Below, one piece after another: positions 27,551 through 56,693 of a stretch of 64,000 nt of DNA; position 1 is the stretch's first letter, and every line of letters begins with the position of its first letter. Made by a program: the position numbers and the translations under genes. The stretch lies in NCBI GenBank assembly GCA_018436595.1, contig JAHDLC010000012.1, positions 26,953 through 90,952 on the forward strand, read 5' to 3'. The notes beneath the pieces are model-generated. The model saw only the letters and a program-made list of their open reading frames with translations, did not search any database and was not told the DNA's origin. Origin of the DNA: Synergistaceae bacterium. GTDB lineage: Bacteria; Synergistota; Synergistia; Synergistales; Aminobacteriaceae.

Positions 27551-27565
27551 GGCTGACACCTCCCG

Positions 27566-28938: not shown

Positions 28939-29057
28939 GAATACCACCTCCCGAAAAGACACAGGCGAACGGCACGGCACAGGGAATGCCGCCGCAGCGG
29001 CCGCCTGCCCTATGGAAAAAGGGCGTCCCTTCAAAAGGGACGCCCGAAAGAACCGGA

Positions 29058-29861
29058 TTATTCCTCTGCGAAAGCGACGATGCGGGAGATGCAGGATTCC
29101 CCGCCGACGAAGCGCCAGGGGAAGCAGCCGATGGTGACGCGCTTGCCGCTGACGAGGTCGATGTCTCCCGCCACGCACTCGGCGTGGATCAGGTTGCTCG
29201 GGAAGAGGGCAATGTGCATCACCTGGTAGTCCTCTTCAGGGAAGAAGTCGTCGAGGCCCTTGCCGTACTTCTTCTTCAGGTGGGCGTCGGCCTGCCTGGC
29301 CTGGACGGGCATCCACTCGCGGATCTTGGTGTTCATGGGGTGGTCAGCGGAGCCGCAGTCCACGCCGATCCACTTGAACTTTCTCTTGAGGGCCCACGTG
29401 GCGAACTCCCTGGTGGGTCCGGGGTGCTTCACCATGTACCGGACTTCGTCCGCCTCGGGCTCGTTCCAGCCATACCGGTGGTAGCCGGTGTTGATGATGA
29501 GGATGTCGCCGTCATGGATGTCCGCCCGGTCCTCGAGGTCCTTGGGGGTGTAGATGCCGTAGTCCTCGGCGATGTCCTTGATATCCACCACGACGCCGGG
29601 TCCCACGAGGAAATCCTTCAGGGGCAGGCTGGCGATGTCGCCGCCGTGGCCGCAGAAGTGGATGGGCCCGTCGAGGTGGGTCCCCACGTGGTTGGAGTGG
29701 GTGACAAGCTGCCCGTTGGCTCCGTTGGGGGCCAGGCGCTTGAAGTATTTCACCTGCAGGGGTTCATAGGTGGGCCAGGGCGGAGTCTGCACGCCGATGG
29801 GAATGGTGAGGTCATACACCTTGATGTTGCTCCAGTTCTTCAGTTCGAGACTATTGCTCAT
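29058..29861 (-). CDS. Cyclase-family metal-dependent amidohydrolase (kynurenine formamidase/isatin hydrolase-like)
   Basis: YDLT, HVGTHLDGPIH (HxGTHxDxPxH), GDILIINTG, GVD..SAD, HIALF. Confidence 0.88.
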   Translation of the reverse strand: MSNSLELKNWSNIKVYDLTIPIGVQTPPWPTYEPLQVKYFKRLAPNGANGQLVTHSNHVGTHLDGPIHFCGHGGDIASLPLKDFLVGPGVVVDIKDIAEDYGIYTPKDLEDRADIHDGDILIINTGYHRYGWNEPEADEVRYMVKHPGPTREFATWALKRKFKWIGVDCGSADHPMNTKIREWMPVQARQADAHLKKKYGKGLDDFFPEEDYQVMHIALFPSNLIHAECVAGDIDLVSGKRVTIGCFPWRFVGGESCISRIVAFAEE

Positions 29862-29906
29862 TCAAAAGCGCCTCCTTTGAGATTGAATCAATCCAGTCTT
29901 CCCGGG

Positions 29907-31166: not shown

Positions 31167-31168
31167 TG

Positions 31169-31351
31169 TCAGTTTCCTCCCTTCCTGAGCTTTTTCAGCC
31201 GGGCGAGGAGATCCCCGCCCGCAGCGGAGGGCTTCCAGTCCATGGAGACCGCCTCCGCCTTCTGGGTCTTCAGATCGGCGTAAAACTGTTCCACGCCGAT
31301 ATTCACAACCTTGGGTCCTTCCTTGAGCAGTTTCGTCACGGACATGGTCAT
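31169..31351 (-). CDS. Small FdrA/YahG-associated protein (60 aa)
   Basis: KVVNIGVEQFYADLKTQ..DWKP motif; overlaps the fdrA stop (ATGA); GGAGGG RBS. Confidence 0.7.
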   Translation of the reverse strand: MTMSVTKLLKEGPKVVNIGVEQFYADLKTQKAEAVSMDWKPSAAGGDLLARLKKLRKGGN

Positions 31352-32907
31352 CCCTCCAGGATCATGGCCGCCAGGCGGGCCGCCCGGGCGTTGCTTTCGC
31401 AGACATGCACGCCCAGCTCCTCGAGAATACGGCGCTGCTCCGACGCATTCTGGGGATCTGTATCCACGCCGCAGATGGACGCCACGAAGGCTATCCGATC
31501 GCCGGCGGCGGACCGGGCCTTGCGGATCCCTTCAGCGAGCCCCGCGGCGGGATCGTCGTTGCACCCGTAGCCGAGGACCACGTCGAAGAGGATCACTCCC
31601 ACTTCGGGGTCCTTTGCCTCCTCGTAGATCCGCTCCGCCCGCAGGGAGACGTCGATCATGGGATGGAGCCGCCCCTGGGTGAATTCGTCCTCGCCGTAAT
31701 CCACCATGGAATGCTGTTCGCTCCTCAGGCTGTCTTCGAGCTTCATCTCTTTTTCCAGTGGGGTGTTGCTCCGGATGGGACCAAGGATGTCCCGGGCGAT
31801 GAGCTGTCCCTCGTAGCACAGTGTCCCGCCGGAATAGAGCCCCCGGAGGAATCCCTTCCGCCTCCCGATGGTTTCGGCCCTCTGCCGGAGCGACTCATAG
31901 TCCCGAAAGAGGTTCTCCCTCGCGCGGGCCCCGTCCTCGCCTTTTGCAAGAGCGGCGGCCACGGCGGCGGTTTCCTCGAGCTCCCGGCAGATGAACACGC
32001 CGTCGGAATCACCCTTCGCCTCGCCTCCGATGAAGCCGAGAACGGCAGGCTTCTTCCCCGCCTTCACAGTCTGGAGGATCTTCTGCTCCACTTCCGGTGC
32101 GGGAGGCTTGCCGAGGACGGTAAGCACCTCCACCTCGTCGTCGGCGAGAAGGGCGTTCACCGCCTGGAGACACATGATGCCCCCCACCTCGCGGCGGACG
32201 TCCCTGCCTCCCGTCCCGATACCGTGGAGGACGCCCACTCCCCGCCTTGCGAGCTGGACGTGAACCTCCTGGAGCCCGGTTCCTGCAGCCGCGACGATGC
32301 TCACGGGTCCCGGAGGGCAGGCGTTCGCCATGCCCAGAGCCACGCCCCGGACGATGATGGTGCCGCAGTCGGGGCCCATGACGAGCAGCCCTTTTTCGGC
32401 GGCAGCCTTCTTTATCTCCACTTCCTTCTCCACCGGCACGTTGTCGGAGTAGAGCATGACGTTGAGTCCCTTCCCGATGCAATCCATGGCGACGTCGCCG
32501 GCGTATTTTCCCGCCACGGAGATCAGGGCGAGGTTCGCGTCGGGGAGGATCGAGAGCGCTCCGTCAAGGCTCTTGGGACGGTAGTCGCCCCCTGAATCCG
32601 CTTTTCTCCCGGGGGGATTGGCGAGGTATTCCTTCGCTTTTTCAAGGGCTCCTTCCAGGAGAGCCTCCCTTTCCCCTTCAGGGGCATCGGTCTTAACGGC
32701 AATGATGAGGTCGTTGGGGGTGGCGTCCACCCCGCCGAGGTCGAAACCTCCCGAGCCCATGATCTTGTAGTTCGCCTCGGTTCCCATGCTCAGCGAGGCC
32801 ACGGACACTCCTTCAGTCTTGAGAAGCTCCTTCGCCACAAGCATGAGGGTGACGCTGTCATAATAGGTCCTTCGGATAATTTGAATCCGCTGATTCGAAG
32901 AGGGCAC
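31348..32907 (-). CDS. fdrA: Acyl-CoA synthetase-like FdrA (YahF/AllF family)
   Basis: YYDSVTLM, GTEAN, ANLALISVAG, YSDNV, MGPDCGT, GTGGRD, GLYSGGTL, DEFTQGRLHPMID. Confidence 0.92.
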   Translation of the reverse strand: MPSSNQRIQIIRRTYYDSVTLMLVAKELLKTEGVSVASLSMGTEANYKIMGSGGFDLGGVDATPNDLIIAVKTDAPEGEREALLEGALEKAKEYLANPPGRKADSGGDYRPKSLDGALSILPDANLALISVAGKYAGDVAMDCIGKGLNVMLYSDNVPVEKEVEIKKAAAEKGLLVMGPDCGTIIVRGVALGMANACPPGPVSIVAAAGTGLQEVHVQLARRGVGVLHGIGTGGRDVRREVGGIMCLQAVNALLADDEVEVLTVLGKPPAPEVEQKILQTVKAGKKPAVLGFIGGEAKGDSDGVFICRELEETAAVAAALAKGEDGARARENLFRDYESLRQRAETIGRRKGFLRGLYSGGTLCYEGQLIARDILGPIRSNTPLEKEMKLEDSLRSEQHSMVDYGEDEFTQGRLHPMIDVSLRAERIYEEAKDPEVGVILFDVVLGYGCNDDPAAGLAEGIRKARSAAGDRIAFVASICGVDTDPQNASEQRRILEELGVHVCESNARAARLAAMILEG

Positions 32908-40742: not shown

Positions 40743-41972
40743 TTACGGACAGCTGCATCCGCCTCCGCTGCCCCCGTTGCCTCCCTCTCCTCCGCCGCTT
40801 CCCGTATCTGCAGGAGACTGGTAATCTCTCCGTGCGTTCAGGCTTTCCAGGAAAGCCTGCCTGTCGGGGGCGTTCAGGTACCCGGCCAGTTCCTCCGGTG
40901 AAAGGGTTCTTCTCCCTGTCGTATTGGCAATCTCGTCCCCGGTGGCTCCGAGAACGGCCAGGGTGATTTCCTTCGGGTCACCGCTCACCACTCCGATCAG
41001 GGACGTAGCCTGGTTTATTCGGGTCGTCGCCGTTTCGACATCCCCCGCGCCTCTTCCCCCATGGATCTGGCTCATGTCGTTGGCAAAAGAAACACAGGCC
41101 CCGACATTCGCGGCCGTGTAGACAGCCACGGCGGTCAGGGCTCCCGCAGTCGATACGGCGGGGGCAGAAATGACTACAACAAGACCTACACCCGCAAGGG
41201 TAATCGCCGTGACGAACTTCGTTCCCGCCATGGCCGTCGCCCAGTTCTTCTGTCCGACAACGCTGCCGATTTTGTGATGTCCTGCGGCGACTTTGTCAGC
41301 GACCCATCCCACGGCGTTCTTCAGTCCTCTGCCGATGCTGGAAGCCGTATTCTGGACCGTCTGCGCCGCCCTGGAAAAACCGTCCATAACGGCACCGAAC
41401 TCCTTGTTCAGCTGTTTTCCTACCTCCTGCATCTGGTATTCCATCTCGTCCATCGGGGTATCAAAAGCAATTGCCGGAGAAGCGGCGAGCACCTCCACGA
41501 GGAACGGGAAGACTTCAAAAAGCTCGTCCAGGGCTGCCGAAAAACTCTCCGGGCCTGCCTCTCCCTTCAGAGCCACCCTGACTATCCTCACTGAATCCTC
41601 CAGGCGTTTTCCCGCCTTTTCAAGGGCGTCGCAGGCCTCGACGGCATGATTCAGCCGGGCCTTCATCTCCTCCCCGGTCGCTTCTCTTGTGTCAAGCTCT
41701 TCGAGATTCCTCAGCGCAAGGCTCGCCTGAATGCCTGTGAGCCGAACAAGCTCGAGGCTGTCCGCCAGCCGCGTTTTCTGGTTCTTCGGCAGGTCGAGCC
41801 TGGCTACCGTTCCCTTGCTGCTCTCCCCGCGGGAGGACGGGGCTGGTTTCCCGTTTTTCTTCACCGGGGCGGCTCCACCTCCGGAACTCTCAAAAGTGAC
41901 TGCCTCCACCACTGAGGAAAAACCCGTGAGGAAAAGAAACAAAACAAGAAAAATTCCGCTCGCTTTCCGCAT
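40743..41972 (-). CDS. Hypothetical exported protein with hydrophobic hairpin and Gly-rich GGGCSCP tail
   Basis: Signal peptide MRKASGIFLVLFLFL..VEA; helical N-half; Gly/Ala-rich hydrophobic segment; 409-aa open frame. Confidence 0.75.
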   Translation of the reverse strand: MRKASGIFLVLFLFLTGFSSVVEAVTFESSGGGAAPVKKNGKPAPSSRGESSKGTVARLDLPKNQKTRLADSLELVRLTGIQASLALRNLEELDTREATGEEMKARLNHAVEACDALEKAGKRLEDSVRIVRVALKGEAGPESFSAALDELFEVFPFLVEVLAASPAIAFDTPMDEMEYQMQEVGKQLNKEFGAVMDGFSRAAQTVQNTASSIGRGLKNAVGWVADKVAAGHHKIGSVVGQKNWATAMAGTKFVTAITLAGVGLVVVISAPAVSTAGALTAVAVYTAANVGACVSFANDMSQIHGGRGAGDVETATTRINQATSLIGVVSGDPKEITLAVLGATGDEIANTTGRRTLSPEELAGYLNAPDRQAFLESLNARRDYQSPADTGSGGGEGGNGGSGGGCSCP

Positions 41973-42184
41973 TGCCGCTCCACCGCCTTTCACATAATTC
42001 TCAACTCGTCCGCAGGCTCCCCGAAGCTTCCTGCGATAATGAGCCCGGACAGCCGATACAGCACCACATTCCGTCGCACCGGCAAAAACTCTCTTTACAT
42101 TAAAAGACGTTCAAAAATACAATAAAAAAGGAGAATATACAGGCAAAAACAACCAACACCCAAGGGACTCAAGACTCATTCAAG

Positions 42185-42213
42185 TTGAAAACACAGGCTT
42201 ATTGTTTTATAAT
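42185..42213 (+). promoter_or_regulatory. Sigma70-type promoter for the exported-protein operon
   Basis: TTGAAA-N17-TATAAT in an AT-rich intergenic region. Confidence 0.7.
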
Positions 42214-42315
42214 TATACATCAAAATGATCCACATGATTGTTATTTTTTCCTTCTTCGCTTTGTATGCTTTTACGTTGTGATTTTTTTTTCGGACAGACG
42301 AGAGGGGGATTCAAG

Positions 42316-43281
42316 ATGCTTCCAAAAAAAATGTTCCGATGCCTGCTGCTGGTTCTTCTGTTGGCCCTTCCCTCATGGGGGGAGGAACTGGTTCTTCCTC
42401 CGATTGAGGAACTGCCGGCGGGAGAAACTCCCCCCGCCGCCCCGGTCATTCCCTCCCTTCCTGCTGTTCCTGCCGTTGACGCGGTCCCGGCTTTCGAGAC
42501 AAGCGGTTCTACAGGGCAGCCTCCTGCTCCTCCGGCAGGGGGAGACGTGCTGGATGAAACGGAGTTCGCAAAGATCAACTGGACAGGGGACTACGTGGAG
42601 GCAACCGGTCAGGCTGTGCCTCCCCCGGGAATGGAAAATTCTCCCCAGGGCAAGCTTCTTGCCCGTCGGGGCGCCGTGGTGGATCTCCAGCGGAACCTTC
42701 TCGAGGCCGTCCAGGGAGTGAAGGTCGACTCGAAAACCATCATGACCGATTTTATGGCCTCCGACCTTGTCAGGACCGAGGTGCAGGGCCTGATCAAAGG
42801 CGTGGAGGTCCAGGAAGGCTCATGGGACGGAGCCGTCTATACCGTCAAGGGGAGGGTGAAGCTTGAGAAGGTCCGGGCCGCCGTGCTGCCGGCCCTGCCG
42901 AAGCAGCCCGGAAAAAAGGCCGTTCCCTCGCTCCAGCCGAAAACAGGCGGAGCGTCGGGGCTCCTTGTGGATGCCCGCCATCTTCCTCTGATCCCCGCCC
43001 TGATCTTTCGTATAGTGGACGGAAACGGAAAGGAAGTGTACGGGCTCGACTTCGTCGACCAGGAACGTTTTCTCGCTTCAGGCCTCTGCGACTACCATAC
43101 GAATATCGACTACGCGCGGGGGGCTCCCCGCATCGCGTCGTCCCCCCTGGTGATCAAGGCAGTCAAAACGGTGTCCCCCGGAAATGCGGATCTGGTGATT
43201 TCGAACGCCGATGCGGCAAAAATACGGGGAAACGCCTTCGACTTCCGGATTCCCTGCAGGGTAACCGTGGTGAAGCGGTGA
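42316..43281 (+). CDS. Exported protein with LPP20-like domain
   Basis: Signal peptide, Pro-rich linker, INWT..VEATG..LARRGAVVDLQRNLLE..GV.VDS.T; GAGGGGG RBS. Confidence 0.7.
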   Translation: MLPKKMFRCLLLVLLLALPSWGEELVLPPIEELPAGETPPAAPVIPSLPAVPAVDAVPAFETSGSTGQPPAPPAGGDVLDETEFAKINWTGDYVEATGQAVPPPGMENSPQGKLLARRGAVVDLQRNLLEAVQGVKVDSKTIMTDFMASDLVRTEVQGLIKGVEVQEGSWDGAVYTVKGRVKLEKVRAAVLPALPKQPGKKAVPSLQPKTGGASGLLVDARHLPLIPALIFRIVDGNGKEVYGLDFVDQERFLASGLCDYHTNIDYARGAPRIASSPLVIKAVKTVSPGNADLVISNADAAKIRGNAFDFRIPCRVTVVKR

Positions 43282-43285
43282 GATC

Positions 43286-44419
43286 ATGAGAAGATCTTTT
43301 GCCGCCCTTTGCATTCTGCTGTCGGTTCTGATTCCCCGGCCCGCTGCATGGAGCGCCGACCCTGTTGCCGTACAGGCCGAAGGAATGGCTGCCGTTATTG
43401 AAGGAAACACCGCCCGTGCCCGTGAGGAAGCCACCCGCCATCTGTACAGGGACGCCGTCGAGAAGGCCCTGGGCGCCTACGTCCAGGGGATCACCGAGAT
43501 GAAGGATTTCGCCGTCGTCAGGGACAGGGTTTTTTCCCAGTCCCAGGGAATAGTGACTTCAACGAAAAACCTGGCGGAGACCCTCGGACAGGACGGCATT
43601 CTTCGCCTCACGGCGGACTGCACTGTTTCCACGACCGTTCTCGACGGGGTTCTCGGTCCCGCCGTCATCGACATGCTCGGCAACCCGAGGGTCATGGTGC
43701 TGGTGGACGAAGTGGTGGAAGGAGAGCGGCAGTTCCTCTCCACTGCTGAAGGAGAGGTGCTGCGGGTTTTTCAGAAGGCGGGCTACCTGATCGTGGACCC
43801 GGCGCAGGCGGGAGTCATCAGGGAAGGAGAACTCGAGGCCGCCAGGCTCTCGGGCGACCCGGCGAAACTCCGGGAAGTGGCAAAATCCTTCCGCTCCGAT
43901 GTGCTGATCCACGGCAAGGCCCAGGGAAATTCCTTCGCCAGGCAGAAGATTGAAGGCGTTACCCTGTTCGGTGTGCGGTCCCAGCTCCAGCTCAAGGCCG
44001 TCATCACCCAGAACGCCGTCGTTCTGGGAACGGAGATCGCCGAAGCGAAGACCAAAGGGACATCCCCCGGGGACGGAGCGGTGAAGGGTTTCACCACCCT
44101 CGCTCCCAGATCGGCGGCGGAACTCGTCCACAAGGTGGCCTATGCCCTCGTGAGCGGGTCTTCCGGCGGCATTCCTGGGAGGACGTACCGGGTCTCCGTA
44201 TCCGGCGTTTCGTTCAGCGAAGCCAGAAACCTCCGGGAAGGCCTGGCGGGAAAGAAGGGTATAACGGGGGTTTACCAGAGAAGCTTTGCCGACAGGACTC
44301 TCGAGATGGACGTGACGGCGGAGCTCACATCTGAAGAGGTGGCCCTTGCCCTGGAAGCCCTCGGCGTTGAGGTAACCGGCCTGACCGGGGGGACCGTTGA
44401 AGGGAGAAAGCATCCATGA
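43286..44419 (+). CDS. Exported protein with FlgT_N-like N-domain and CsgG-like middle domain
   Basis: Signal peptide; V.AEG.A....ARAREEA...AVEKA.G pattern; GY.IVD middle domain. Confidence 0.65.
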   Translation: MRRSFAALCILLSVLIPRPAAWSADPVAVQAEGMAAVIEGNTARAREEATRHLYRDAVEKALGAYVQGITEMKDFAVVRDRVFSQSQGIVTSTKNLAETLGQDGILRLTADCTVSTTVLDGVLGPAVIDMLGNPRVMVLVDEVVEGERQFLSTAEGEVLRVFQKAGYLIVDPAQAGVIREGELEAARLSGDPAKLREVAKSFRSDVLIHGKAQGNSFARQKIEGVTLFGVRSQLQLKAVITQNAVVLGTEIAEAKTKGTSPGDGAVKGFTTLAPRSAAELVHKVAYALVSGSSGGIPGRTYRVSVSGVSFSEARNLREGLAGKKGITGVYQRSFADRTLEMDVTAELTSEEVALALEALGVEVTGLTGGTVEGRKHP

Positions 44420-44865
44420 AAGGGATCCTGCCGCTGTTCCTGCTCCTCTTTCTTCTCGCGGCCGCCCGGGGATGTGCCTCCCTGTCCCTGGAACAGATCG
44501 ATCAGATACGGCGGAACAACGGCGGAGCGGAGGGAATACAGGTGTTCCGGTACGGTGTCGTGGACTGGAGCGGGGGATCCGTCACCGCCGAAGGCAGAGG
44601 CCCCCTTCTCTCCGGTTCACCCCATGACAGGCTTCTGGCCAAAAGGGGAGCCGTTTCCGATGCCCGCCGGAATCTTCTCTGCCTTCTGTACGAAATGAAG
44701 TTCGGCCTTCCGGAAAAGCTGGAGTCCATCGAGGTATCGGGAGAAGTCGTCGAGGGGAACATTGACTTCCAGGGAGTCAGGAACGGCATGTACATCGTCG
44801 AAGTGACCGTTTCGCTGGACAGGTTTCTCTCGGAGAGCCTGATTTTCAGCAGCACGGTGAGGTGA
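44416..44865 (+). CDS. Small exported/possible lipoprotein, LPP20-like paralog of 42316 N-domain
   Basis: VDWSGGSVTAEG..LLAKRGAVSDARRNLL aligns with 42316; signal ends AARGC. Confidence 0.65.
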   Translation: MKGILPLFLLLFLLAAARGCASLSLEQIDQIRRNNGGAEGIQVFRYGVVDWSGGSVTAEGRGPLLSGSPHDRLLAKRGAVSDARRNLLCLLYEMKFGLPEKLESIEVSGEVVEGNIDFQGVRNGMYIVEVTVSLDRFLSESLIFSSTVR

Positions 44866-44870
44866 TTTTC

Positions 44871-45668
44871 ATGAAATGGCGTCCATGGATACTCCTGGTA
44901 TTGCTTGTCATCTCCTGCCTCCTCCTTCCGGATGCCGAAGCCCTGGGAGCCGCCCTTCCTCAAGGAAAGACCATCGCCGTTCTCGTCAGGGGGACACCCT
45001 CTCATGCGGCTGCGACCCGTTCTCTCCTGGTCCGGGCCCTTCTCGACGGGGGCTATCGGGCAGTGGACGAGCAGCAGCTCGAAAAAATCAGGCGCAGCAA
45101 GGCCGCAGCCCTGGCTCTTGAAGGGAATGTGGATGCCATTCTTCAGCTCGGCCGAAGTTTCGGGTTTTCCGTGCTTCTCTCAGGCGCGGTCACCGTTCCG
45201 AAACCGGTGCGAAATGAATTCGGACTTTTTACAGCCACGGCCTCCGTTTCGGTCACGGCCTGCCATGCAGCCAACGGCAGGCAGATTCTGGCCCTGACGG
45301 AATCGGCGAAAGAGATCGGCTACACTCCGGAAGAGGCGGCGCAAAAAGCGGCGGAAAAGGCCGCCTCGTCCGCAGGAGATGTCATCCTGGGAAAAAGAGC
45401 CGCCGGAAAGCCGGAGAACCCGGCGTCAAAATACACAGTCATCGTTTCGCCGGTGAGATCCTTCGCGGAAGCCCACGGCATAGTGGAAAGCTGCAGGGAT
45501 GCCGGAGCCCTCTCCGCTTCCCTTCTGCGGTTCGCCGCCGGAAAGGCCGAGGTGGAGGCGGAGTTCGGAGGAACGGCGGCGCAGCTTGTTGCCGCCCTTC
45601 TTCGGGTTCGCAAGGAGTTCTTCGAAGAGTCCGCGGAGGGGAACGTCATCAGGCTGGGGAAGCAGTGA
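44871..45668 (+). CDS. Exported protein, paralog of the middle and C-terminal domains of 43286
   Basis: Signal peptide; GYRAVDE; YTVIVS.V.SFAEA aligns with YRVSVSGVSFSEA of 43286. Confidence 0.7.
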   Translation: MKWRPWILLVLLVISCLLLPDAEALGAALPQGKTIAVLVRGTPSHAAATRSLLVRALLDGGYRAVDEQQLEKIRRSKAAALALEGNVDAILQLGRSFGFSVLLSGAVTVPKPVRNEFGLFTATASVSVTACHAANGRQILALTESAKEIGYTPEEAAQKAAEKAASSAGDVILGKRAAGKPENPASKYTVIVSPVRSFAEAHGIVESCRDAGALSASLLRFAAGKAEVEAEFGGTAAQLVAALLRVRKEFFEESAEGNVIRLGKQ

Positions 45669-45693
45669 AACGGCCTTTTCATGAAAGGAAGGG

Positions 45694-46413
45694 ATGATGA
45701 TGATCCACGGGAAAAGAATCGCGCTCCTGATGCTCGCAGGGATCCAGTTTTTCCTCGTTCTCTCCGGCACGACGGCTGCACGGGCCGAGGTCAGTCTGTT
45801 CATCGATGCCCATACCGTCCGGGTCCATGATCCCTCTCTCGGGCGCCAGTCAGTTCTCAACGACTTCCGGACAAAAGGTCACCGGACCCACAACTACCTT
45901 GCCCTTGTATGGAGCGAAGATACTGCATGGGTATACGACACCAGGACCCATCAGTGGCTCACCCAGGGAGATTTCCGGACCCTGCTCGGTTCCCTCTCCG
46001 ACGAATTCGCCCTCGTCTGGAACGACAGCGAGGCGGCAGTTTTCGACGCGAAGAAGCAGGAATGGATACGGAGCGAAACCATGCCCTGGACCGTCAGCGG
46101 CGCCCATCTCTCCCGGGGAATGGCCGCTCTCTCCGGAGACGACGGCTTCGTGGTCTACGATCCCGTACTGAAGCAGTGGCAGTACGCCAACGATTTTCCG
46201 GTACTGAAGGCCCAGGTGGGAGATGTGCTTGCGGCGGCATGGGATGCGGACAACCTCGTCCTTTATGATCTGACGGTGCACCAGTGGGTTCTCCGGGAAG
46301 GAATCAGGGCTCAGGCATGTATCATCAACGGACACAAGGCCATTATCTACACCGCGGACAAAATCCTTGAATACGACGCCATGACCCACCGCTGGACCGA
46401 GAAAAACCGGTAG
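45694..46413 (+). CDS. Exported repeat protein (probable beta-propeller)
   Basis: Signal peptide then about six 36-38-aa repeats with [YF]D....W. Confidence 0.75.
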   Translation: MMMIHGKRIALLMLAGIQFFLVLSGTTAARAEVSLFIDAHTVRVHDPSLGRQSVLNDFRTKGHRTHNYLALVWSEDTAWVYDTRTHQWLTQGDFRTLLGSLSDEFALVWNDSEAAVFDAKKQEWIRSETMPWTVSGAHLSRGMAALSGDDGFVVYDPVLKQWQYANDFPVLKAQVGDVLAAAWDADNLVLYDLTVHQWVLREGIRAQACIINGHKAIIYTADKILEYDAMTHRWTEKNR

Positions 46414-46439
46414 GGAAGCCCACGAAAGGAGAATCGGGC

Positions 46440-47597
46440 ATGAAAGAGGCACTCCGCAGAATATCCATTCTTTCCGCAGTTCTTTTCCTGTTCCTTCTCC
46501 CGGGAGCGGAGGGAGCCTCCCTTTCCGTGGCCGTCCAGCCCTTCCTTTCCCAGGGAACGGAATTCCACCTCGGGCCGGCCGTCTCGGACATCGTCTCCAC
46601 CAGCCTGGCCGGGGCCAGGGACATCACGGTGGTCGAACGGATGCGCCTCGCGGAGGTCGCCAGACAGCACCGCCTTTCCATGTCCGGAGTGGTGGATACG
46701 GCAACCGCTGCCACAGCGGGAAAACTCTCCGGGGCCAGGTATTTCATTCTCGGCGCGGTCAGCCGTTTCGGCGCCCTTCTCGTGGTCACCGCACGGCTGG
46801 TGGACGTGGAGTCCGGCAGGGTTCTCGGGAGCTTCGAACAGACTTCACGGCAGGGAGAGGATGAGATCGTCCTTGTCTCGAGAAACCTCTCGGCGGAGCT
46901 TCTGGCCTTTTTCAGCGGAGATGCCCCTGCGCCGGGCGATCCTCTGAAGGACTACAGGTACTATCTCTACGAAGCCCTGGGCTACTACAACCTGGGTGAG
47001 TACAGAAAATCCCTTCCCTTCTGGGAGAAGATGACCCAGCTCAGTCCCCGCAACGGACTCCTCCGGTTCATCGCCGCGGGGATCTACTTCCAGGCGGGGA
47101 GGCACTCCGACGCCCTTATCGCCGCCCAGCAGGCGGTCACATGGGATCCCTCCTTCGCCGAAGCCCATCTTCTCGTCGGGAAAGCCTATTTCCTCCTCGG
47201 GGACAACCATAAGGCCACACCGCCCCTTGACAGGGCCCTGGAGCTGAATCCCAGGCTGACGGAAGCCCTTTTTCTCAAGGGATCGGCCTTCAAAAACAGG
47301 AAGCGGACCGAAGAGGCGGCCGATTTCTTCGTGGAGGCTATCCAGACCGATGAAACCTATGTTCCCGCGTATCTCGCCCTCGGTCAGCTGCTCCTGGAGA
47401 ACGGGGCGGCAGAGGAAGCCGCAGGCGTTCTTCTTTCGGGAATGAAGCACCAGCCGGGCAACGGCAATCTCCGGTTTCTTCTCGGCACGGCCCATCTGAT
47501 GCGGGGCAATCTCCAGGGAGCGAAGGAACAGGCCGCAGCCCTGAAATCCATAGATACTGCGCTGGCAAAAAAACTGGAACAGCTCTGCAGCCAGTGA
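46440..47597 (+). CDS. CsgG/HfaB/FlgO-like domain plus TPR repeats
   Basis: Signal peptide; VVERMRL, AGKLSGARYFILGAV, ARLVDVESG; several TPR-like helix pairs. Confidence 0.8.
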   Translation: MKEALRRISILSAVLFLFLLPGAEGASLSVAVQPFLSQGTEFHLGPAVSDIVSTSLAGARDITVVERMRLAEVARQHRLSMSGVVDTATAATAGKLSGARYFILGAVSRFGALLVVTARLVDVESGRVLGSFEQTSRQGEDEIVLVSRNLSAELLAFFSGDAPAPGDPLKDYRYYLYEALGYYNLGEYRKSLPFWEKMTQLSPRNGLLRFIAAGIYFQAGRHSDALIAAQQAVTWDPSFAEAHLLVGKAYFLLGDNHKATPPLDRALELNPRLTEALFLKGSAFKNRKRTEEAADFFVEAIQTDETYVPAYLALGQLLLENGAAEEAAGVLLSGMKHQPGNGNLRFLLGTAHLMRGNLQGAKEQAAALKSIDTALAKKLEQLCSQ

Positions 47598-47631
47598 GAG
47601 CTGCAATCTGCAGAAAGGGAGTGACGCGATC

Positions 47632-48366
47632 ATGAAGTTGAAAGCCCATGTATCGGCAGGAATCCTGATTCTCGGCTTCGCTCTCCTCCTCTCCCCAGTC
47701 CGGGGATTCGGATGAGGCGGAGGAAGCGACGGGGGCGGCGGGGCGTCGTCCACAGCAGAGGAGAAGGCCATCGAGAGAATAGTGAGCGTGTTTACCTCGA
47801 AGGGAATGCTTGAGGGCAGGGATCTCGACGAGGCGGTCAAGCTGGCGGGGTCCGTCACGAAGGAAGGGGAATGCAAGGCGGCATACCTGGCCGGCGCCAG
47901 CCTGCTGCGAAAGGGAGAGTATGACAGGGGCAGGGAGTTCATGCTGAAGGCCCTTGACGGATGCTACGATCTGTCCGTGAATTTCTGGGGCGACATGGAA
48001 CGGCTCCGGACCATCGCGGCCGGAGAACTCGCCCTCCACGCGGGCACCAGGGGAGATTACCGGACCATCATCGCCGTTGAGGAGAAAGTGGCAAAGGACA
48101 TTGCCACGGACAGGCTTCTGGTGAGAGACGCGAAATGCATTCTCCAGGGAAGGACCAAGCTCGGTGATATACTGAAATTCCACAAGGCTCGGGCGTACCA
48201 TGCTTCGAAGATGACCGCCGATGCAAAGAACACCCTGAACGAACTCCAGTTCGCTTCGGGGAAAGTGTTCGTTGACGGCGAAGTGGTCGGTTTGAAGGAC
48301 GCTATTTCGAAACTGCAGCTTCAGGTGGACGGAGCGGCCTTTCTGCCTTTCCTGAAGGCTGTTTGA
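47632..48366 (+). CDS. Exported TPR-like protein interrupted by in-frame TGA at codon 28 (recoded or pseudogene)
   Basis: GAAAGGGAG RBS, ATG 47632, signal peptide, TGA 47713-47715, then the same frame stays open to 48366. Confidence 0.65.
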
Positions 48367-48388
48367 CGTGTTTCGGGAGGAATGAGTG

Positions 48389-48880
48389 ATGGGCAGAGTG
48401 CCGGCGGCTGTTCTGCTGCTTCCTGTTTTTCTGGGGATCCTTTTGTTCCCCTGCCCTTCAGCGGGAGAAATGGTTCTTGCCGTACCTGATTTCCAGGCCG
48501 TGGGCTGCATGCCCTACCTTGGCTCCGGAGTGGCTGAACAGGTAAGGGCGAAACTGACGGGCCGGGGCCCGTGGACACTTCTTGAATCCTCCCAGATGGC
48601 GAAGATCGCCTCGGAACATCGTCTCTCCATGTCCGGGCTGATGGATGAAAAGAAAGCGATATCTGTCGGAAAGGTTCTCGGGGCCCAATATCTTATTGTC
48701 GGTTCCGTCAGCCTGACGGGATCCGTATTCACTCTGACTGCCCGTCTGGTGGACGTCAGTACCGGGGTGGTTCATGCCGGTTTTCAGACCGTCACCCATG
48801 AGGGAGAGGAAGGCCTGCCGGCTGCCGCAGGGTTCCTGGCGGAGGACATCGCCGCGGAGCTGGGCGGACCTGATGCCTGA
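48389..48880 (+). CDS. CsgG/HfaB/FlgO-like exported protein
   Basis: Signal peptide; LAVPDF, EHRLSMSGL, VGKVLGAQYLIVGSV, ARLVDVSTG; paralog of 46440 N-domain. Confidence 0.8.
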   Translation: MGRVPAAVLLLPVFLGILLFPCPSAGEMVLAVPDFQAVGCMPYLGSGVAEQVRAKLTGRGPWTLLESSQMAKIASEHRLSMSGLMDEKKAISVGKVLGAQYLIVGSVSLTGSVFTLTARLVDVSTGVVHAGFQTVTHEGEEGLPAAAGFLAEDIAAELGGPDA

Positions 48881-48891
48881 TACAGGAATAT

Positions 48892-48922
48892 AAAAGAGGG
48901 CGGGGGATTTCCCCCGCCCTCT
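48892..48922. terminator. Terminator between convergent genes
   Basis: AAAAGAGGGCGGGGG-ATTT-CCCCCGCCCTCT. Confidence 0.8.
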
Positions 48923-53319: not shown

Positions 53320-53868
53320 CTACATATCCCGAACAGTCAGAACCAATACAGCCTGCCCCGCCCCGGGCGCAAGGCTGTTGTTGCCCGTCATTTTCACCGT
53401 CCCCCTGCCGCCGGCGCAGAAAATCCCCCGAACCCCCGTAAGGAGGTCGACCTCTCCGGTTCCGAGAGCCTGGGGTCCGGTGGACCGCCCTTCCCTTGGT
53501 GAAGTTATCTCCACCGTCAGCGACAGCCCTGCCGGCAGAGGCGACACAAGACGGCCCGTCAGCTTTCTCGGCGCATCCCCGGTGGAGGAAAGGAGAAAGA
53601 AAAAGGCGCTCTCGCCCGGTTTTCCGCCGATCATGGCGGCCATTGAGACGGAAGTGTTCGTGAGATGGACCCCGCGGAATTCCGGAATGGTCACTTCCAG
53701 GGAAAGCGCGGCCGATTCCGCCGCCTCCGAGGGGAAATCCATGGCCCCCAGCAGCAGCGCTCCCGCGGCGCACGCGAGAAGAATCGAAAGAATCGAAAGA
53801 ATCGGAAGCGATCCGGAACCGGACCGAGAAATCATCATTGTGCCCTTCCCCTTTCCCCGAGGGTTCAT
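53320..53868 (-). CDS. Exported pilin-like subunit (terminal gene), paralog of 58160
   Basis: Signal peptide; K..G..LP.G.S..TGPQ.LGT..VDL shared with 58160; start 53868 (ATGA overlap) or 53838. Confidence 0.65.
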   Translation of the reverse strand: MNPRGKGKGTMMISRSGSGSLPILSILSILLACAAGALLLGAMDFPSEAAESAALSLEVTIPEFRGVHLTNTSVSMAAMIGGKPGESAFFFLLSSTGDAPRKLTGRLVSPLPAGLSLTVEITSPREGRSTGPQALGTGEVDLLTGVRGIFCAGGRGTVKMTGNNSLAPGAGQAVLVLTVRDM

Positions 53869-56693
53869 TTCTTTTTTCCGGAAGAGGACGTCGTCGTAAC
53901 GGTGCCGCTGTCGATAAACTGTATGGTCCGTTTCTTCCGGAAAATGTGATTCACCATCTCCATCACGTCCCCAGGCGCCAGATCAATGGTTTTCGACTCG
54001 GTCTCGAACTGGTAGCCGGCGGGGATGCCCGCTTCGTAAAATGTCAGCTGCCAGTTCCCGGGGCGGATGTTGTCGAACACGAACTCCCCGTTCATGTCGG
54101 TGGAACGTCTGACTGTCTGGTCATCCCTTGTCAGCTCCACCAGTATGTGGGCCAGGCTGACAGGCTTGGCGCCGGATTCCGTCGCCGGCGGTCCCCCGGC
54201 ACCTTCCTTTCCGCCATCTCCCGTTCCTCCCTCCCTGAGAGCGAGCCTTCCCCTGAAAATCGCCCCTTTGGTTATGCCGATATCCATGGAGACAGGTTTG
54301 GGCCCTCCCGCGATCTCGAGGGAGATGGGGTACTTCTGCACCGTGGTGAAACCGTAGCCGATGGACTTGGGGTCGATCATGACGCGGTAAAAACCGGGCT
54401 CCAGGGCGGGGAAGAGGAAAAGACCGTCCTTGTCGGTCACCACGGCTTCAGTCCCTACCCTGACAACAATGTCAGGAAGCCCCGGCTTTTCCGGATTCAT
54501 GGAGTCGAATACCTTGCCCCTGAGAATCCCCACGTTCGTCTTCTTCACCGTCTTGATGCCCACCGGAATCTGGTAGGAAAGGCGGTATTCCGTTTCATAA
54601 TCGTCCCTGGTGACTTCCAGGGTAAGAAGCCGTTCTTCCGTCATCTCGTAGGTTGCGATAAGGTCGAACTGGTTTGACAGCATCTCGGCGTTGTCCCCGA
54701 TGCCGGATCTCGTATAGGCCAGGGAAAGGGTGAGCCGGGGAGAGGCCCTCCAGAAGACAGCCCCTCCGAAACTGCTCGACCCCCTGAGAAGGTAGCTCTC
54801 GCTCAGGACATCGTTGTCGCCGAGGTTCCAGAAAAAGCTCAGGGTGAGGTTGGGCGACGGGAAATAACTCACGAGGAAATTCACGTTCCAGGCCGATTCC
54901 GACACCCCGGTGAGATGATTGTGCTGGTCGCTGAACCGGGGCTCCACGGACCAGTTGATCTGGCCGAAATTCCGGCCGAACCGGATCCAGTACGATGTCT
55001 CCGAATAATCGAAGTTTGCGGGAGCAAGCCGATCGACCCGCCCGAAATCATCAAAGCCGACCATGAGGAACCAGCCGTTCTGCAGAGAGAAATCGAGGGT
55101 CGCCTGCACCAGGTTCTCGGATACGGCCGTATCCGACTCTCCCGGCCTGCGGTCGAGATTGTTCTCGTAGGAGGACGCTCCTATCCCCAGCCGCATTTTT
55201 GGACCTACCGGCAGGCTGACGGAAGCGTTTTCGTAATCGTAGCTGTGGAAATAGCCCCAGTAGTCGGCCCCGGCATGGGTCTTGCCAAGGGAGTAGGACA
55301 TCTTTCCCGCCGTCATCCCCCGCCACAAAAAGCGGTAGGCATCGTCGTCGTTTTTCGCTCCGGGCCGGTCAGTGCTGCTGCGCCCGTACTCAACTTCAAG
55401 CGTGCTGTTCTTTCCCGTCCTGAAGCGCCCTTCCAGGCTCCAGAGCTTGTCCTCCACCTCCGGTTCGCTGCTCGTGGCTTTTGTCTCGGACTGGGCCACG
55501 TTCAGGCGGAGAAAGGAATCATCCCCGAGGGAACGCTGCAGGTAAAATCCCCTGTCGATCCAGTCCTCTTCCCCGGCCCGGTCCCTCACGTAGAACAGGC
55601 CTGCGGACATGTTCCCTCCGGCCATGGACTTGAAATCCACCCCAAACCCCCTTCCGTAGGAGGAATAAACGGTCAGGGGGGAGACGCCGTAGGGCTGGTC
55701 CCCCATCAGGATCCCGAGGGAGCGGCTCGAGTAATTCATCCAGTATTCGTCGGTCCTGCTGAAGAAGGAGGAATCGTCCACATCGGGCCCCCGGAAGGAA
55801 AAGGAAAATTGCTGTTCTCCCTCTTCGTCGAGGGTACCCGCCCCTTTCCATTCGAAGGACGGCTTTGTGTCTCCTCCAGCGGTTCTCGCAGCCGATACGG
55901 CGAACGTGGAAGGGAGGATATGGTAGGGTTCCGGTTTTTTAAAGAGGGCGGGTACGACCTCCAGGAGGACAGCAGTGGAGACGGCCTCCTCTTTTTTTCC
56001 GTCCTTCTCGATTTCCGCCGTTAACTGGATGACGGTGACAGTTCCCCGGAATCCGGGGTCGATCTTTCCCGAGACGGAAATGGCCGCCCCTTCCCCGGGC
56101 TTGAGTGAAACTTCCGATGGAGCCGCCAGAGCTGGTGAGTTCGGATCCGTGTTCTTCGCCCGTATCAGGAAGGTACGGGGGATATTGCCCGAATTGACCA
56201 GCCGGGCGGAAAACTCGTATTCTTCCCCCGCCATGAGCGATGCCGGAGGGTTCTCCACCATCAGGTCAGTCTTCGCCACCGCGAGAACGACCACCTCATA
56301 TTCCATCGAGCCCCGTATGGACGGATCCCGGTCAGACTGCACCGAATATTGGATTTTCGCCCGTCCCTCTGCGGCATTGATGGGTATCTGGAACGACAGG
56401 AGGCGGGCCGTCGAGGCCTGGGGAGGCAGCACGAAGGACGTCATGGGGATCACCATTGACCAGCCTTTCGGCAGGATGACGTCTTCCCGGAACCGTTCCT
56501 GCCTGTTCGTCCGGTTGGTAACCTCGATACTGATGGTGTGCATGCGGCTCGGCTCGGACACGATCTGGACCGGTGAAACAACCCGGACCTCCGCTCCCCT
56601 GCCGTGAAACTGGGCACAGGAAGGCCCTCCTCCCAACAGAAGGAGAAAGACAAGCCCCGCCGACAATCCCCTGCCGACCCGCATGGCGTCCAT
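53865..56693 (-). CDS. Usher-like outer-membrane protein (Ig-like domains, beta-barrel, carboxypeptidase-regulatory-like domains)
   Basis: Signal peptide; two Ig-like N-domains; long run of amphipathic aromatic beta-strands; G.LRGKVFD..TDKDG.F.F..L.PG.Y domain occurring twice. Confidence 0.65.
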   Translation of the reverse strand: MDAMRVGRGLSAGLVFLLLLGGGPSCAQFHGRGAEVRVVSPVQIVSEPSRMHTISIEVTNRTNRQERFREDVILPKGWSMVIPMTSFVLPPQASTARLLSFQIPINAAEGRAKIQYSVQSDRDPSIRGSMEYEVVVLAVAKTDLMVENPPASLMAGEEYEFSARLVNSGNIPRTFLIRAKNTDPNSPALAAPSEVSLKPGEGAAISVSGKIDPGFRGTVTVIQLTAEIEKDGKKEEAVSTAVLLEVVPALFKKPEPYHILPSTFAVSAARTAGGDTKPSFEWKGAGTLDEEGEQQFSFSFRGPDVDDSSFFSRTDEYWMNYSSRSLGILMGDQPYGVSPLTVYSSYGRGFGVDFKSMAGGNMSAGLFYVRDRAGEEDWIDRGFYLQRSLGDDSFLRLNVAQSETKATSSEPEVEDKLWSLEGRFRTGKNSTLEVEYGRSSTDRPGAKNDDDAYRFLWRGMTAGKMSYSLGKTHAGADYWGYFHSYDYENASVSLPVGPKMRLGIGASSYENNLDRRPGESDTAVSENLVQATLDFSLQNGWFLMVGFDDFGRVDRLAPANFDYSETSYWIRFGRNFGQINWSVEPRFSDQHNHLTGVSESAWNVNFLVSYFPSPNLTLSFFWNLGDNDVLSESYLLRGSSSFGGAVFWRASPRLTLSLAYTRSGIGDNAEMLSNQFDLIATYEMTEERLLTLEVTRDDYETEYRLSYQIPVGIKTVKKTNVGILRGKVFDSMNPEKPGLPDIVVRVGTEAVVTDKDGLFLFPALEPGFYRVMIDPKSIGYGFTTVQKYPISLEIAGGPKPVSMDIGITKGAIFRGRLALREGGTGDGGKEGAGGPPATESGAKPVSLAHILVELTRDDQTVRRSTDMNGEFVFDNIRPGNWQLTFYEAGIPAGYQFETESKTIDLAPGDVMEMVNHIFRKKRTIQFIDSGTVTTTSSSGKKK

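Follow-up and report, generated by a model that had tools for sequence, protein, structure and literature searches.

The closest described counterparts of the locus analysed here are the H-ring of Vibrio, which is made of FlgT, FlgP and FlgO-type proteins (PDB 3w1e, 8z5n), and the FlgP basal disk of Campylobacter (9hmf). FlgP, FlgO and CsgG bear a lipobox, and to our knowledge FlgP, FlgT and CsgG-type domains are ring polymers in every solved case. The LP ring is encircled by 26 copies of FlgT and 26 copies of FlgP, which form rings (PMC13626733). The curli channel CsgG and HfaB are a further point of comparison, with an alpha/beta core that is common to LpoB, TolB_N, PelC and GNA1162. The type VIIb secretion system (T7SSb) of Bacillota, with EssC, YukD and WXG100 proteins and the membrane partners EssA, EssB and EsaA, has been described from monoderm bacteria. 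Leptospira LipL46 and Treponema Tp0624 are envelope proteins of atypical diderms for which we know of no function.

The locus is an operon of eight genes (g1 to g8) of a Synergistota bacterium from an anaerobic digester, located within the 64-kb stretch of DNA that was analysed as a whole and is called the window here. It shares with the Vibrio and Campylobacter rings the co-location of the same three families and the export of their products to the envelope. In contrast to these rings, it has no flagellar gene context, every family is duplicated, and its FlgP-like and FlgO-like proteins lack lipoboxes. Moreover, TPR, six-repeat and predicted selenoprotein partners are added, and its relatives are coupled to EssC and not to motor genes.

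Results

Operon structure and transcription

The eight genes are one transcribed unit encoding exported proteins only (Table 1). The open reading frames at 42316-48880 are tightly packed on the + strand, with intergenic gaps of -4 to 34 nt, and the single promoter and single terminator that the first-pass annotation of this DNA had proposed were both recovered. Metatranscriptome contigs begin downstream of the near-consensus promoter at 42269/42283, where the RNA depth climbs from <1 to ~19 (run X29), and stop at 48836/48886 (runs X29 and X31). A single contig covers 44561-48254 and, in conjunction with these contig ends, is consistent with one polycistronic mRNA. The T-run of the terminator hairpin lies on the - strand, indicating that the hairpin is common to the operon and the convergent gene. 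At the N-terminus, all eight proteins have a basic n-region and then a hydrophobic stretch. Thus, the signal peptide claimed for every gene was present, although the in-frame TGA between the signal peptide of g7 and the remainder of the protein had been overlooked.

The divergent neighbour of the operon is possibly associated with it. It adjoins the operon also in the closest relatives (L001-L003, L009, L011), and all copies end in a Gly-rich tail with a Cys motif, which is CxC or CxxC in most of them (CSCP, CGCG.., CGPCP and CGGCP, with DCGSH in one copy). A family search with this protein gave no match.

Table 1. Positions of the operon genes, their signals and the divergent neighbour in the window
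Feature	Coordinates	Strand	Size	Description
Divergent neighbour	40743..41993	-	416 aa	Signal peptide, hydrophobic segments, Gly-rich C-terminal tail ending CxC
Promoter	42185..42213	+		Sigma-70-type, TTGAAA-N17-TATAAT, 11/12 consensus positions matched
g1	42316..43281	+	321 aa	Signal peptide, Pro-rich linker, FlgP/LPP20-like domain, Tp0624-related C-terminal domain
g2	43286..44419	+	377 aa	Three-domain FlgT-like protein
g3	44416..44865	+	149 aa	Small FlgP/LPP20-like protein, paralogue of g1 N-terminal domain
g4	44871..45668	+	265 aa	FlgT-like middle and C-terminal domains, without N domain
g5	45694..46413	+	239 aa	Exported, six ~35-aa [VY]D...W repeats
g6	46440..47597	+	385 aa	Short CsgG/LpoB/TolB_N-type alpha/beta domain, then TPR repeats
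g7	47632..48366	+	244 codons	Signal peptide, UGA, Gly-rich linker, TPR-like domain
In-frame UGA	47713..47715	+		Predicted Sec codon, position +1 after signal peptide (..SPVRGFG-U-GGGSDGGGG..)
SECIS-like hairpin	47733..47751	+		8-bp stem GGGCGGCG / CGUCGUCC, GGG loop
g8	48386..48880	+	164 aa	Minimal CsgG/LpoB/FlgO-type alpha/beta domain
Operon terminator	48895..48922	.		12-bp GC-rich hairpin between convergent genes

Ring-protein families and paralogy

The FlgT, LPP20 and CsgG assignments of the first-pass annotation were borne out at the profile and fold level, but not throughout by direct Pfam matches, since a direct Pfam scan of g1, g2 and g3 of the window gave no match at E<=1. For the FlgP/LPP20-like pair, the evidence comes from family profiles that match solved FlgP chains. 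The g1 profile (A3) matched 9hmf_C (E 6.4e-18), 8z5n_2 'FlgP' (1.9e-7) and also 9yds 'FlgP', and the g3 profile (A6) matched 9hmf_C (E 4.5e-9). Pfam LPP20 was matched by four of the 34 g1 orthologues. The C-terminal part of g1, an addition compared to FlgP, matched residues 133-261 of Tp0624 (5jir_B, 2e-6).

The AlphaFold2 model of g2 (pLDDT 84.6) shows the full N/M/C architecture of Vibrio FlgT, with 3w1e (E 1.4e-9) and the LPHT-ring chain of 8z5n (2e-8) as the best Foldseek matches; its middle domain is also similar to GNA1162, CsgG, PelC and TolB_N. PF16548 (FlgT_N) is recorded in many g2 orthologues. A partial match to NCBIfam LipL46 (1e-13) was found for g2 as well. The architectures of g2 and g1 differ, however, from those of LipL46 and Tp0624, and these matches are far under the family cutoffs. 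No direct match to g4 was found in PDB or Pfam, and its assignment to the FlgT module follows from its paralogy with g2. An alternative GTG start of g4 is located at 44862.

All three proposed paralogue pairs were recovered by BLASTP or profile comparison: g1 and g3 (E 2e-9), g2 and g4 (E 1e-3) and g6 and g8 (E 2e-26). The alignment of the g4 and g2 profiles (hhalign, A4/A2) has a probability of 98.8% and an E-value of 9.7e-17, pairing residues 35-265 of g4 with 133-373 of g2.

The CsgG-like proteins g6 and g8 both exceed the Pfam CsgG threshold. For g6, the match (1.5e-9) covers just profile positions 35-102 of 210 and is accompanied by strong TPR repeats (TPR_2 2.4e-18 and further TPR families), in line with the claimed TPR protein. 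For g8, CsgG (4.6e-7, positions 35-99/210), LpoB (4.8e-5), TolB_N (1.6e-4) and FlgO (6.7e-3) were matched, and its profile (A7) found LpoB (3.9e-6) and CsgG (4.4e-5) in PDB. Although the CsgG-type alpha/beta core is shared, the matches do not extend beyond about the middle of the profile and the domains have ~135 aa, the size of LpoB or FlgO. Therefore, neither g6 nor g8, which has 164 aa in total, has room for the two transmembrane hairpins of CsgG, and the operon does not encode a CsgG/HfaB-type channel. CsgG-like orthologues elsewhere in Synergistota span nearly the whole profile. A conserved lipobox is absent from all FlgP-like and CsgG-like operon proteins, which carry signal peptidase I-type signals instead.

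The proposed propeller protein, g5, is possibly a small beta-propeller as judged from its repeats. The two halves of the protein are homologous (hhalign 98.1%, E 7.7e-14), indicating an internal duplication. The propeller assignment draws on this duplication, the six short repeats and a single Kelch_1 motif match (2e-5), and no PDB relative of g5 was found.

A predicted selenoprotein family

The reading frame of g7 is open except for the single TGA, which is kept in 13 orthologues and is invariant across contigs of four independent metagenomes. The corresponding position is Cys in three homologues (P0146, P0160, L010) and Ser or Thr in others (P0127, P0132-P0134, P0145). Each of the 13 orthologues with UGA has, 21-31 nt downstream of it, a perfect hairpin of 6-9 bp with a G-initial loop of 3-4 nt; in the window, the GGG loop begins 28 nt past the U of UGA. 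The inner six pairs of this SECIS-like hairpin are paired in 13/13 sequences with three to five pair types each, i.e. they co-vary, and codon shuffling gave P values of 0.0025-0.06 per sequence. The hairpin is absent from both g7 orthologues without UGA. The conserved UGA, the co-varying hairpin and the Cys/Ser/Thr replacements together suggest that g7 represents a new, previously unnoticed selenoprotein family with Sec just after the signal peptide. This family is tiny, with 22 clusters among 1.84 billion representatives. The AlphaFold2 model of g7 (pLDDT 90.4) weakly matches TPR/MamA-like folds.

Known bacterial selenoproteins with a SECIS directly 3' of the UGA, such as FdhF and GrdA/B, share with g7 the in-frame UGA, the hairpin with a G-initial apical loop and Cys homologues; the host phylum, Synergistetes, has been described as rich in selenoproteins (PMC9312934). 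In contrast to these proteins, the predicted Sec of g7 directly follows the signal peptide and occupies a lipobox/cleavage position. It would be carried by a Gly-rich tether on a scaffold protein with a TPR-like domain, outside a redox active site, and is replaced in homologues by Ser or Thr besides Cys.

Synteny and genomic neighbours

The gene order of the operon is kept in about 50 Synergistota loci and in two more loci outside the phylum. No flagellar, curli or holdfast genes were found among the Pfam-annotated genes at ~11.6-62 kb of the window. Six related loci with annotated flanks likewise have no flagellar genes there, and the flanks of the other ~57 show no recurrent flagellar gene. 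These results agree with the earlier description of the assembly as stand-alone.

In nine fetched loci, a homologous module directly precedes a protein of ~1500 aa with FHA and FtsK/SpoIIIE domains. Its scores with the NCBIfam model of EssC, the ATPase of type VII secretion, were 853 and 990 bits (cutoff 778). The genes upstream of EssC include homologues of g2 and g4 (33-34% identity, E 8e-47 and 1.5e-19). The module consists, in order, of a FlgT-like protein, a FlgT-MC-like protein and one or two CsgG-like proteins, followed by EssC 4 nt downstream; of these CsgG-like proteins, the ones tested cover almost all of the CsgG profile. Downstream of EssC are a YukD-like gene, WXG100-domain proteins, a PP2C and a Ser/Thr kinase. 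Sister Synergistaceae thus have EssC, a YukD-like protein and WXG100 proteins of 100 aa in common with T7SSb, encoded in one operon with the homologous module. Unlike T7SSb, the host is diderm, the neighbours are exported FlgT/CsgG-type proteins, and no EssC was found in the window by tblastn. The EssC adjacency is limited to one Synergistaceae lineage (9 of ~57 loci from the g2 query and two loci reached from EssC) and therefore may reflect a single ancestral arrangement.

Discussion

The first-pass annotation had offered two readings of the operon, a remote motor scaffold or an export machine, and the evidence favours the latter through the EssC/YukD-like/WXG100 linkage. It appears distinctly unlikely that the operon encodes a flagellar motor accessory, an H-ring or basal-disk equivalent round the LP ring that is encoded apart from flagellar loci. 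The Vibrio H-ring is made of the same three families, g1 and g3 match best to the Campylobacter motor scaffold (9hmf), and the named operon carriers Fretibacterium, Aminivibrio, Dethiosulfovibrio and Thermovirgaceae are motile. However, no flagellar gene adjoins the operon in the annotated part of the window or in the six related loci with annotated flanks, one genome (L004) has two copies of it, one lineage couples it to EssC and WXG100, the FlgP-like and FlgO-like proteins have no lipobox, and the FlgT-like architecture is found also in LipL46, a lipoprotein. It is highly improbable that the operon exports an amyloid or a polysaccharide in the way of curli, holdfast or Pel systems, through an outer-membrane conduit formed by its CsgG-like and TPR proteins: csgA/B/E/F, hfa and polysaccharide synthase genes are absent from the annotated part of the window and from the flanks of its relatives, and the CsgG-like domains of the window are too short for a barrel. 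This is despite the above-threshold CsgG matches, PelC and CsgG among the fold matches, a TPR-CsgG-like fusion reminiscent of PelB/PelC, and the CsgG-like orthologues of other Synergistota that span nearly the whole profile.

An LpoB- or TolB-like module for envelope integrity, tethering the outer membrane to peptidoglycan or regulating peptidoglycan synthesis with no role in secretion, also seems unlikely. It would fit g6 and g8, which match LpoB and TolB_N about equally to CsgG, the likeness of the g1 C-terminal domain to a domain of Tp0624, an OmpA-like envelope protein, and a related locus outside Synergistota (L056) with a TPR + SLH (cell-wall-binding) protein. However, no recognisable peptidoglycan-binding domain was found in the eight proteins of the window. 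LpoB function needs a lipid anchor and the partner PBP1B, neither of which was seen, and the EssC/WXG100 linkage of the relatives would be left unexplained.

In our judgement, there is about an even chance that the operon encodes parts of a periplasmic, outer-membrane-proximal, non-flagellar protein scaffold typical of Synergistota. Such a scaffold is probably secretion-related. Against this reading, the window has no EssC, the EssC linkage is confined to one lineage, g6 and g8 are too short for a CsgG-like barrel, the signal peptidase I-type signals do not account for outer-membrane attachment, and the named carriers are motile. The solved FlgP, FlgT and CsgG-type cases are ring polymers, and the g2 model resembles the oligomers PelC and CsgG in fold. 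By analogy, the paralogue pairs would most likely assemble into oligomeric rings, stacked or concentric, with the TPR proteins holding them together. The predicted N-terminal Sec of g7 on its Gly-rich tether would serve as an anchor or cross-linking point, through lipidation, through a selenosulfide bond or as a metal site; a possible partner would be the CxC tail encoded by the divergent neighbour.

The position of the module 4 nt upstream of EssC in the sister lineage suggests that its ancestral role was most likely in type VII-like secretion. In that case, the ancestral module most likely supplied the periplasmic and outer-membrane portion of such an apparatus in this diderm phylum. From the copy in the window, the CsgG hairpin regions would have disappeared, while g5 and g7 would have been added; this copy may serve as a scaffold or accessory ring, not as a pore.

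Operon structure and expression

The window has a G+C content of about 60 % and stems from a Synergistota bacterium. The g2 protein, the product of the second operon gene, shares 99 % identity with a protein from an uncultured Synergistaceae MAG and 75 % with a protein of an Aminivibrio sp. MAG, and all of its close homologues belong to Synergistaceae, Aminobacteriaceae, Thermovirgaceae or Fretibacterium. The window sequence is also present in sludge and anaerobic-digester metagenomes with 96-100 % word identity.

The first-pass annotation had described an operon of eight exported proteins (g1 to g8) between one promoter and one terminator, and this observation was confirmed. The ORFs are separated by intergenic gaps of -4 to 34 nt, and each of the eight products starts with the basic and then hydrophobic segment of a signal peptide. 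The promoter matches 11 of the 12 consensus positions, and the hairpin at the 3' end is common to the operon and a convergent substrate-binding-protein gene. In two cDNA metatranscriptomes, contig starts fall at 42283 and 42269 and contig ends at 48836 and 48886, the RNA depth is below 1 upstream of the promoter versus about 19 within the operon, and a single RNA contig from 44561 to 48254 spans four gene junctions. Therefore, the operon is real and expressed and very probably polycistronic, based on assembled contigs in which some DNA carry-over is possible. Within the leader, a T-run is 1 nt or 4 nt shorter in RNA and metagenome contigs, which is a strain-level length polymorphism.

Positions of the operon, its elements and neighbouring or related features, each on the sequence named
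Feature	Sequence	Position	Strand	Description
Purine/xanthine catabolism cluster	window	~20110-32907		AllF/AllG-type genes, cyclase, two xanthine/uracil permeases, three-subunit xanthine-dehydrogenase-type molybdoenzyme, aldehyde:ferredoxin oxidoreductase
Divergent gene	window	40743-41993	-	416 aa, signal peptide, hydrophobic segments, no family match
Promoter	window	42185-42213		TTGAAA-N17-TATAAT
T-run	window	42281-42292		5' UTR, between promoter and g1 start
Operon g1-g8	window	42316-48880	+	eight ORFs
g7	window	47632-48366	+	244 codons
In-frame TGA of g7	window	47713-47715	+
g8	window	48386-48880	+	164 aa
Terminator	window	48895-48922		12-bp GC hairpin
Repeat protein gene	window	53865-56693	-	942 aa, faint CarboxypepD_reg/SpaA-type repeat matches
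Three small genes	window	beyond 53865-56693, to ~58762		274, 164 and 188 aa, no family match
g7 orthologue	L002, Aminivibrio sp. MAG	14413-15106
Window-type operon	L004	9064-15692	+	adjacent and convergent to next
Fretibacterium-type operon	L004	15778-21094	-
Related module	L056	422-7018		outside Synergistota

Conservation and genomic surroundings

Scanning one genome per species yielded 57 loci, and the operon, which is typical of the phylum, recurs in about 50. Its core order is g1-g2-g3-g4 followed by two CsgG-like genes, while g5 and g7 occur only in the clades nearest to the window. Operons of the window type and of the Fretibacterium type lie together on one contig (L004). A related module was found outside Synergistota in two loci (L056 and L057, Candidatus Coatesbacteria/uncultured), which contain a g1-like gene, genes for a TPR and SLH protein and for an FlgT_N/DUF6175 protein, and a pair of full-length CsgG genes, one with a canonical lipobox. 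Another locus assigned to a different phylum, L007 (Phycisphaerales bacterium Planc_01), is a typical Synergistota operon with a g2 of 65 % identity and the g7 UGA; this contig is therefore probably mis-binned.

The flanks of the operon vary among loci and consist of housekeeping or transport genes. No flagellar, curli or holdfast genes were found in the annotated flanks of related loci, and the absence of flagellar genes reported earlier holds for the annotated part of the window as well. The flagellar LP-ring context of FlgT (flgH/I, motX/Y, flgO/P) is missing from these regions. The neighbours in the window itself are transporters and the purine/xanthine catabolism cluster. Further downstream, the gene for the 942-aa repeat protein and the three small genes beyond it may be another envelope or surface set.

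Fold families of the operon products

Direct Pfam recognition was limited to g6, g8 and one g5 motif, and direct Pfam and NCBIfam scans of g1 to g5 and g7 gave nothing useful. For this reason, family profiles were built from alignments of proteins from syntenic loci. Fold families could be assigned to seven of the eight products, all except g5, which is internally duplicated and consists of six repeats of about 35 aa.

The g1 family profile matches solved FlgP chains, namely 9hmf_C from the Campylobacter motor scaffold with an E-value of 6.4e-18, as well as 9yds and 8z5n_2, which carry the name FlgP, with E-values of up to 1.9e-7. The g3 protein is a small paralogue of this domain (BLASTP E-value of 2e-9), and its profile matches 9hmf_C with 4.5e-9. 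At profile level, both thus carry an LPP20/FlgP domain; Pfam LPP20 (PF02169) matches 4 of 34 g1 orthologues, and g1 and g3 of the window have no Pfam match on their own. The C-terminal domain of g1 matches residues 133-261 of Tp0624 (E-value of 2e-6), which are probably its D2 domain, described by its authors as a previously uncharacterised fold (PMC5104382). The lipoprotein signal of FlgP was not found, as g1 has no Cys at its cleavage site (ALPSWG/EE, the slash marking the end of the signal peptide here and below) and the g3 Cys, which is preceded by Arg-Gly, lacks conservation across the family alignment. No conserved lipobox is present in the FlgP-like or CsgG-like proteins of the operon.

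For g2, the structure model (pLDDT 84.6) has its best fold matches over the whole length with Vibrio FlgT (3w1e, E-value of 1.4e-9) and the FlgT chain of 8z5n (2e-8), a cryo-EM structure of the LPHT-ring, and predicts the three-domain FlgT_N/FlgT_M/FlgT_C architecture. In the fold search, its middle domain also resembles GNA1162, CsgG, PelC and TolB_N. PF16548 is recorded in many g2 orthologues, and the window g2 sequence alone has no Pfam match. The g4 protein is equivalent to g2 from the middle domain to the C-terminal domain (hhalign 98.8 %, E-value of 9.7e-17). Profile searches against PDB sequences with g4, g5 and g7 gave no significant match.

The paralogues g6 and g8 (E-value of 2e-26) pass the Pfam CsgG (PF03783) cutoff, covering profile positions 35-102 and 35-99 of 210. 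This coverage and their length rule them out as CsgG channels: neither has a full-length CsgG domain with the two transmembrane hairpin segments. Their signal peptides belong to the signal peptidase I type and lack the CsgG lipobox, and no csgE/F/A/B partner genes were found in the annotated part of the window. CsgG-like orthologues of other Synergistota, in Fretibacterium- and Aminiphilus-type operons, match CsgG positions 6-199 of 210. The g6 and g8 proteins match LpoB and TolB_N about as well as CsgG, and FlgO weakly. For g8, FlgO (PF17680) reaches 16.7 bits with a cutoff of 22.6 and LpoB (PF13036) 23.7 bits with a cutoff of 22.3, and the g8 family alignment matches LpoB structures with 3.9e-6. 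These g8 matches to FlgO and LpoB are indicative of superfamily membership only. A single-sequence PDB search with a Fretibacterium CsgG-like protein returned only LpoB. In g6, the CsgG-like domain runs on into strong TPR repeats. The three paralogue pairs and family labels proposed in the first-pass annotation therefore stand at the superfamily level, with the reservation that g6 and g8 are unable to form a CsgG-type channel.

A conserved UGA codon in g7

The g7 gene reads MKLKAHVSAGILILGFALLLSPVRGFG-TGA-GGGSDGGGGASST and onwards in one reading frame. Its TGA is identical in contigs from four independent metagenomes, and it is kept in 13 orthologues of 28-99 % identity in which the coding frame continues. 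It always lies directly 3' of the signal peptide (GFG/U, AFG/U, ALG/U, GAT/U). All 13 UGA orthologues have a SECIS-like hairpin with a perfect stem of 6-9 bp and a G-initial loop of 3-4 nt, 21-31 nt after the UGA. The stem sequences are completely different between lineages. Counted in a fixed register, because the short hairpins were misaligned by MAFFT, each of the six inner base pairs is present in 13 of 13 sequences, with 3-5 types of pair at each position. In codon-shuffled sequences, a stem as long as the observed one arises with P-values of 0.0025-0.06 per sequence. The hairpin is absent in two syntenic, equally Gly-rich orthologues without the UGA (L010 with Cys and L006 with Thr).

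Other readings of this codon were considered. A pseudogene or sequencing error is ruled out by the occurrence of the TGA in 13 species-level orthologues and four independent metagenomes, with an open frame and conserved residues on both sides. Two separate genes, for a 27-aa peptide and a cytoplasmic protein, are ruled out because the stretch from the TGA to the conserved region contains no start codon, and the homologues that lack Sec, being continuous signal-peptide proteins, further count against this. Since TGA is the stop codon of g6 and g8, it does not reflect a change in the genetic code. Cys replaces Sec in database homologues P0146 (AALG/C), P0160 (AFA/C) and P0161 and in L010 (AFGGCGC), other full-length database homologues have Ser or Thr, and some lineages show U-G-C, C-G-C or C-N-C motifs at this site. 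Synergistetes are described as a selenoprotein-rich phylum (PMC9312934). Based on the conserved UGA, the hairpin, the Cys homologues, the unchanged code and this phylum context, g7 is very likely a selenoprotein, with support for the presence of sel genes and for selenium incorporation coming from the phylum level. No tRNA genes were found in the window.

The predicted Sec would be either lipidated or the N-terminal residue after cleavage by signal peptidase I. The motif in front of it satisfies loose lipobox rules, and the Cys forms resemble lipoproteins, but cleavage by signal peptidase I agrees better with the small-X-small motif and with the Ser and Thr forms. The remainder of g7 is a TPR-like helical protein (model pLDDT 90.4) with weak MamA/TPR fold matches only. 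The family is tiny, comprising 39 proteins in the initial search and 22 clusters in a set of 1.84 billion representatives, and g7 is truncated by gene callers everywhere in the databases. Judged by sequence, it would define a new, small family of selenoproteins with Sec in place of the signal-peptide cleavage or lipobox residue. The literature searched contained no report of Sec at a lipobox or of an N-terminal Sec anchor. In L002, the g7 orthologue aligns in two frames around residue 79, owing to either a frameshift or an assembly error, and g8 is truncated.

The divergent gene is kept beside the operon in the same clades as g7. Its C-terminus has a Gly-rich tail and, after it, a motif with Cys that in most cases is CxC or CxxC; the motif reads CSCP in the window and CGCG, CGPCP, CGGCP or DCGSH in orthologues. 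Because of this tail, it can be speculated that its product might be a selenosulfide or metal-sharing partner of the U/C-x-C N-terminus of g7.

Linkage to EssC in related loci

Clustering of flanking ORFs revealed a link to EssC. In nine loci from rumen and termite-gut Synergistaceae, the module of FlgT-like and CsgG-like genes is followed, with a gap of 0-25 nt or an overlap, by a protein of about 1500 aa with an FHA domain and three FtsK/SpoIIIE domains, whose scores against the NCBIfam EssC equivalog (cutoff 778) are 853 and 990 bits. Two further loci on long contigs were reached from EssC itself and show the full gene string: an FlgT-like gene (33 % identical to g2, E-value of 8e-47), a g4-like gene, one or two CsgG-like genes, EssC and a small YukD-like gene, and downstream two or three WXG100 genes of 100 aa, small unknown genes, PP2C, a Ser/Thr kinase and a glycosyltransferase. 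The YukD match is weak and occurs in one contig. The EssC-linked loci (L030, L031, L032, L039, L046, L047, L049, L051, L052, L066 and L067) have WXG100 genes and PP2C downstream, and the YukD-like gene and the Ser/Thr kinase occur in L066 and L067. At other EssC loci, a WXG100 domain forms the N-terminus of longer proteins. In terms of gene content, this is a type VIIb-like locus with a bona fide EssC in a diderm phylum.

EssC, which together with WXG100 genes in the locus marks a type VIIb system, is absent from the 64-kb window, so that the link extends to the window copy by homology only. The EssC linkage is the only functional association found for the module. The literature searched contained no relevant paper on a type VII secretion system with CsgG or in Synergistota.

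Discussion

The exported proteins of this operon would, by analogy with FlgT, FlgP, CsgG and PelC, oligomerise into a ring-like periplasmic scaffold; FlgT and FlgP are 26-mers (PMC13626733). Given the gene linkage to EssC in one lineage, the module probably served ancestrally as the envelope portion of a type VII-like secretion system, and the window variant, with hairpin-less CsgG domains and with g5 and g7, would be a derived scaffold. The earlier interpretation as either a remote motor scaffold or an export or attachment machine is partly supported and thereby sharpened towards a secretion-related scaffold.

Two other roles have to be weighed against a secretion-related one. A flagellar accessory role is possible since the named carriers of the operon (Fretibacterium, Aminivibrio, Dethiosulfovibrio and Thermovirgaceae) are motile; the operon itself is independent of flagellar loci. 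An envelope-tethering or peptidoglycan-regulating role is a serious rival, which fits the similarities to LpoB, TolB_N and Tp0624 as well as the SLH partner in the L056 module, and it leaves the EssC linkage in relatives unexplained. In its widest form, the secretion-related reading is proposed tentatively and at a low probability: diderm Synergistota would have a type VII-like apparatus with FlgT-, FlgP- and CsgG-type ring proteins as its periplasmic and outer-membrane part. Related to the motor H-ring and basal disk but not flagellar itself, this apparatus would possibly be their evolutionary source. The window operon would be a derived form held by a protein with Sec as its first mature residue, either lipidated or selenium-cross-linked.

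Two features described here are unreported, the protein with a predicted selenocysteine at its N-terminus and the linkage of the module to EssC in related loci, and nothing relevant on FlgT, FlgP or FlgO in Synergistetes was found in the literature searched. The truncation of g7 by gene callers is a practical annotation problem. The passage of type VII substrates across the outer membrane is an open question, and EssC and WXG100 genes in one string with exported CsgG- and FlgT-type genes in a diderm make it directly testable. In high-torque flagellar motors, FlgT, FlgP and FlgO are seen as additions specific to certain lineages. A conserved non-flagellar operon of these families in a distant phylum provides a concrete candidate for the origin of these motor parts or for another structure that these families can build.
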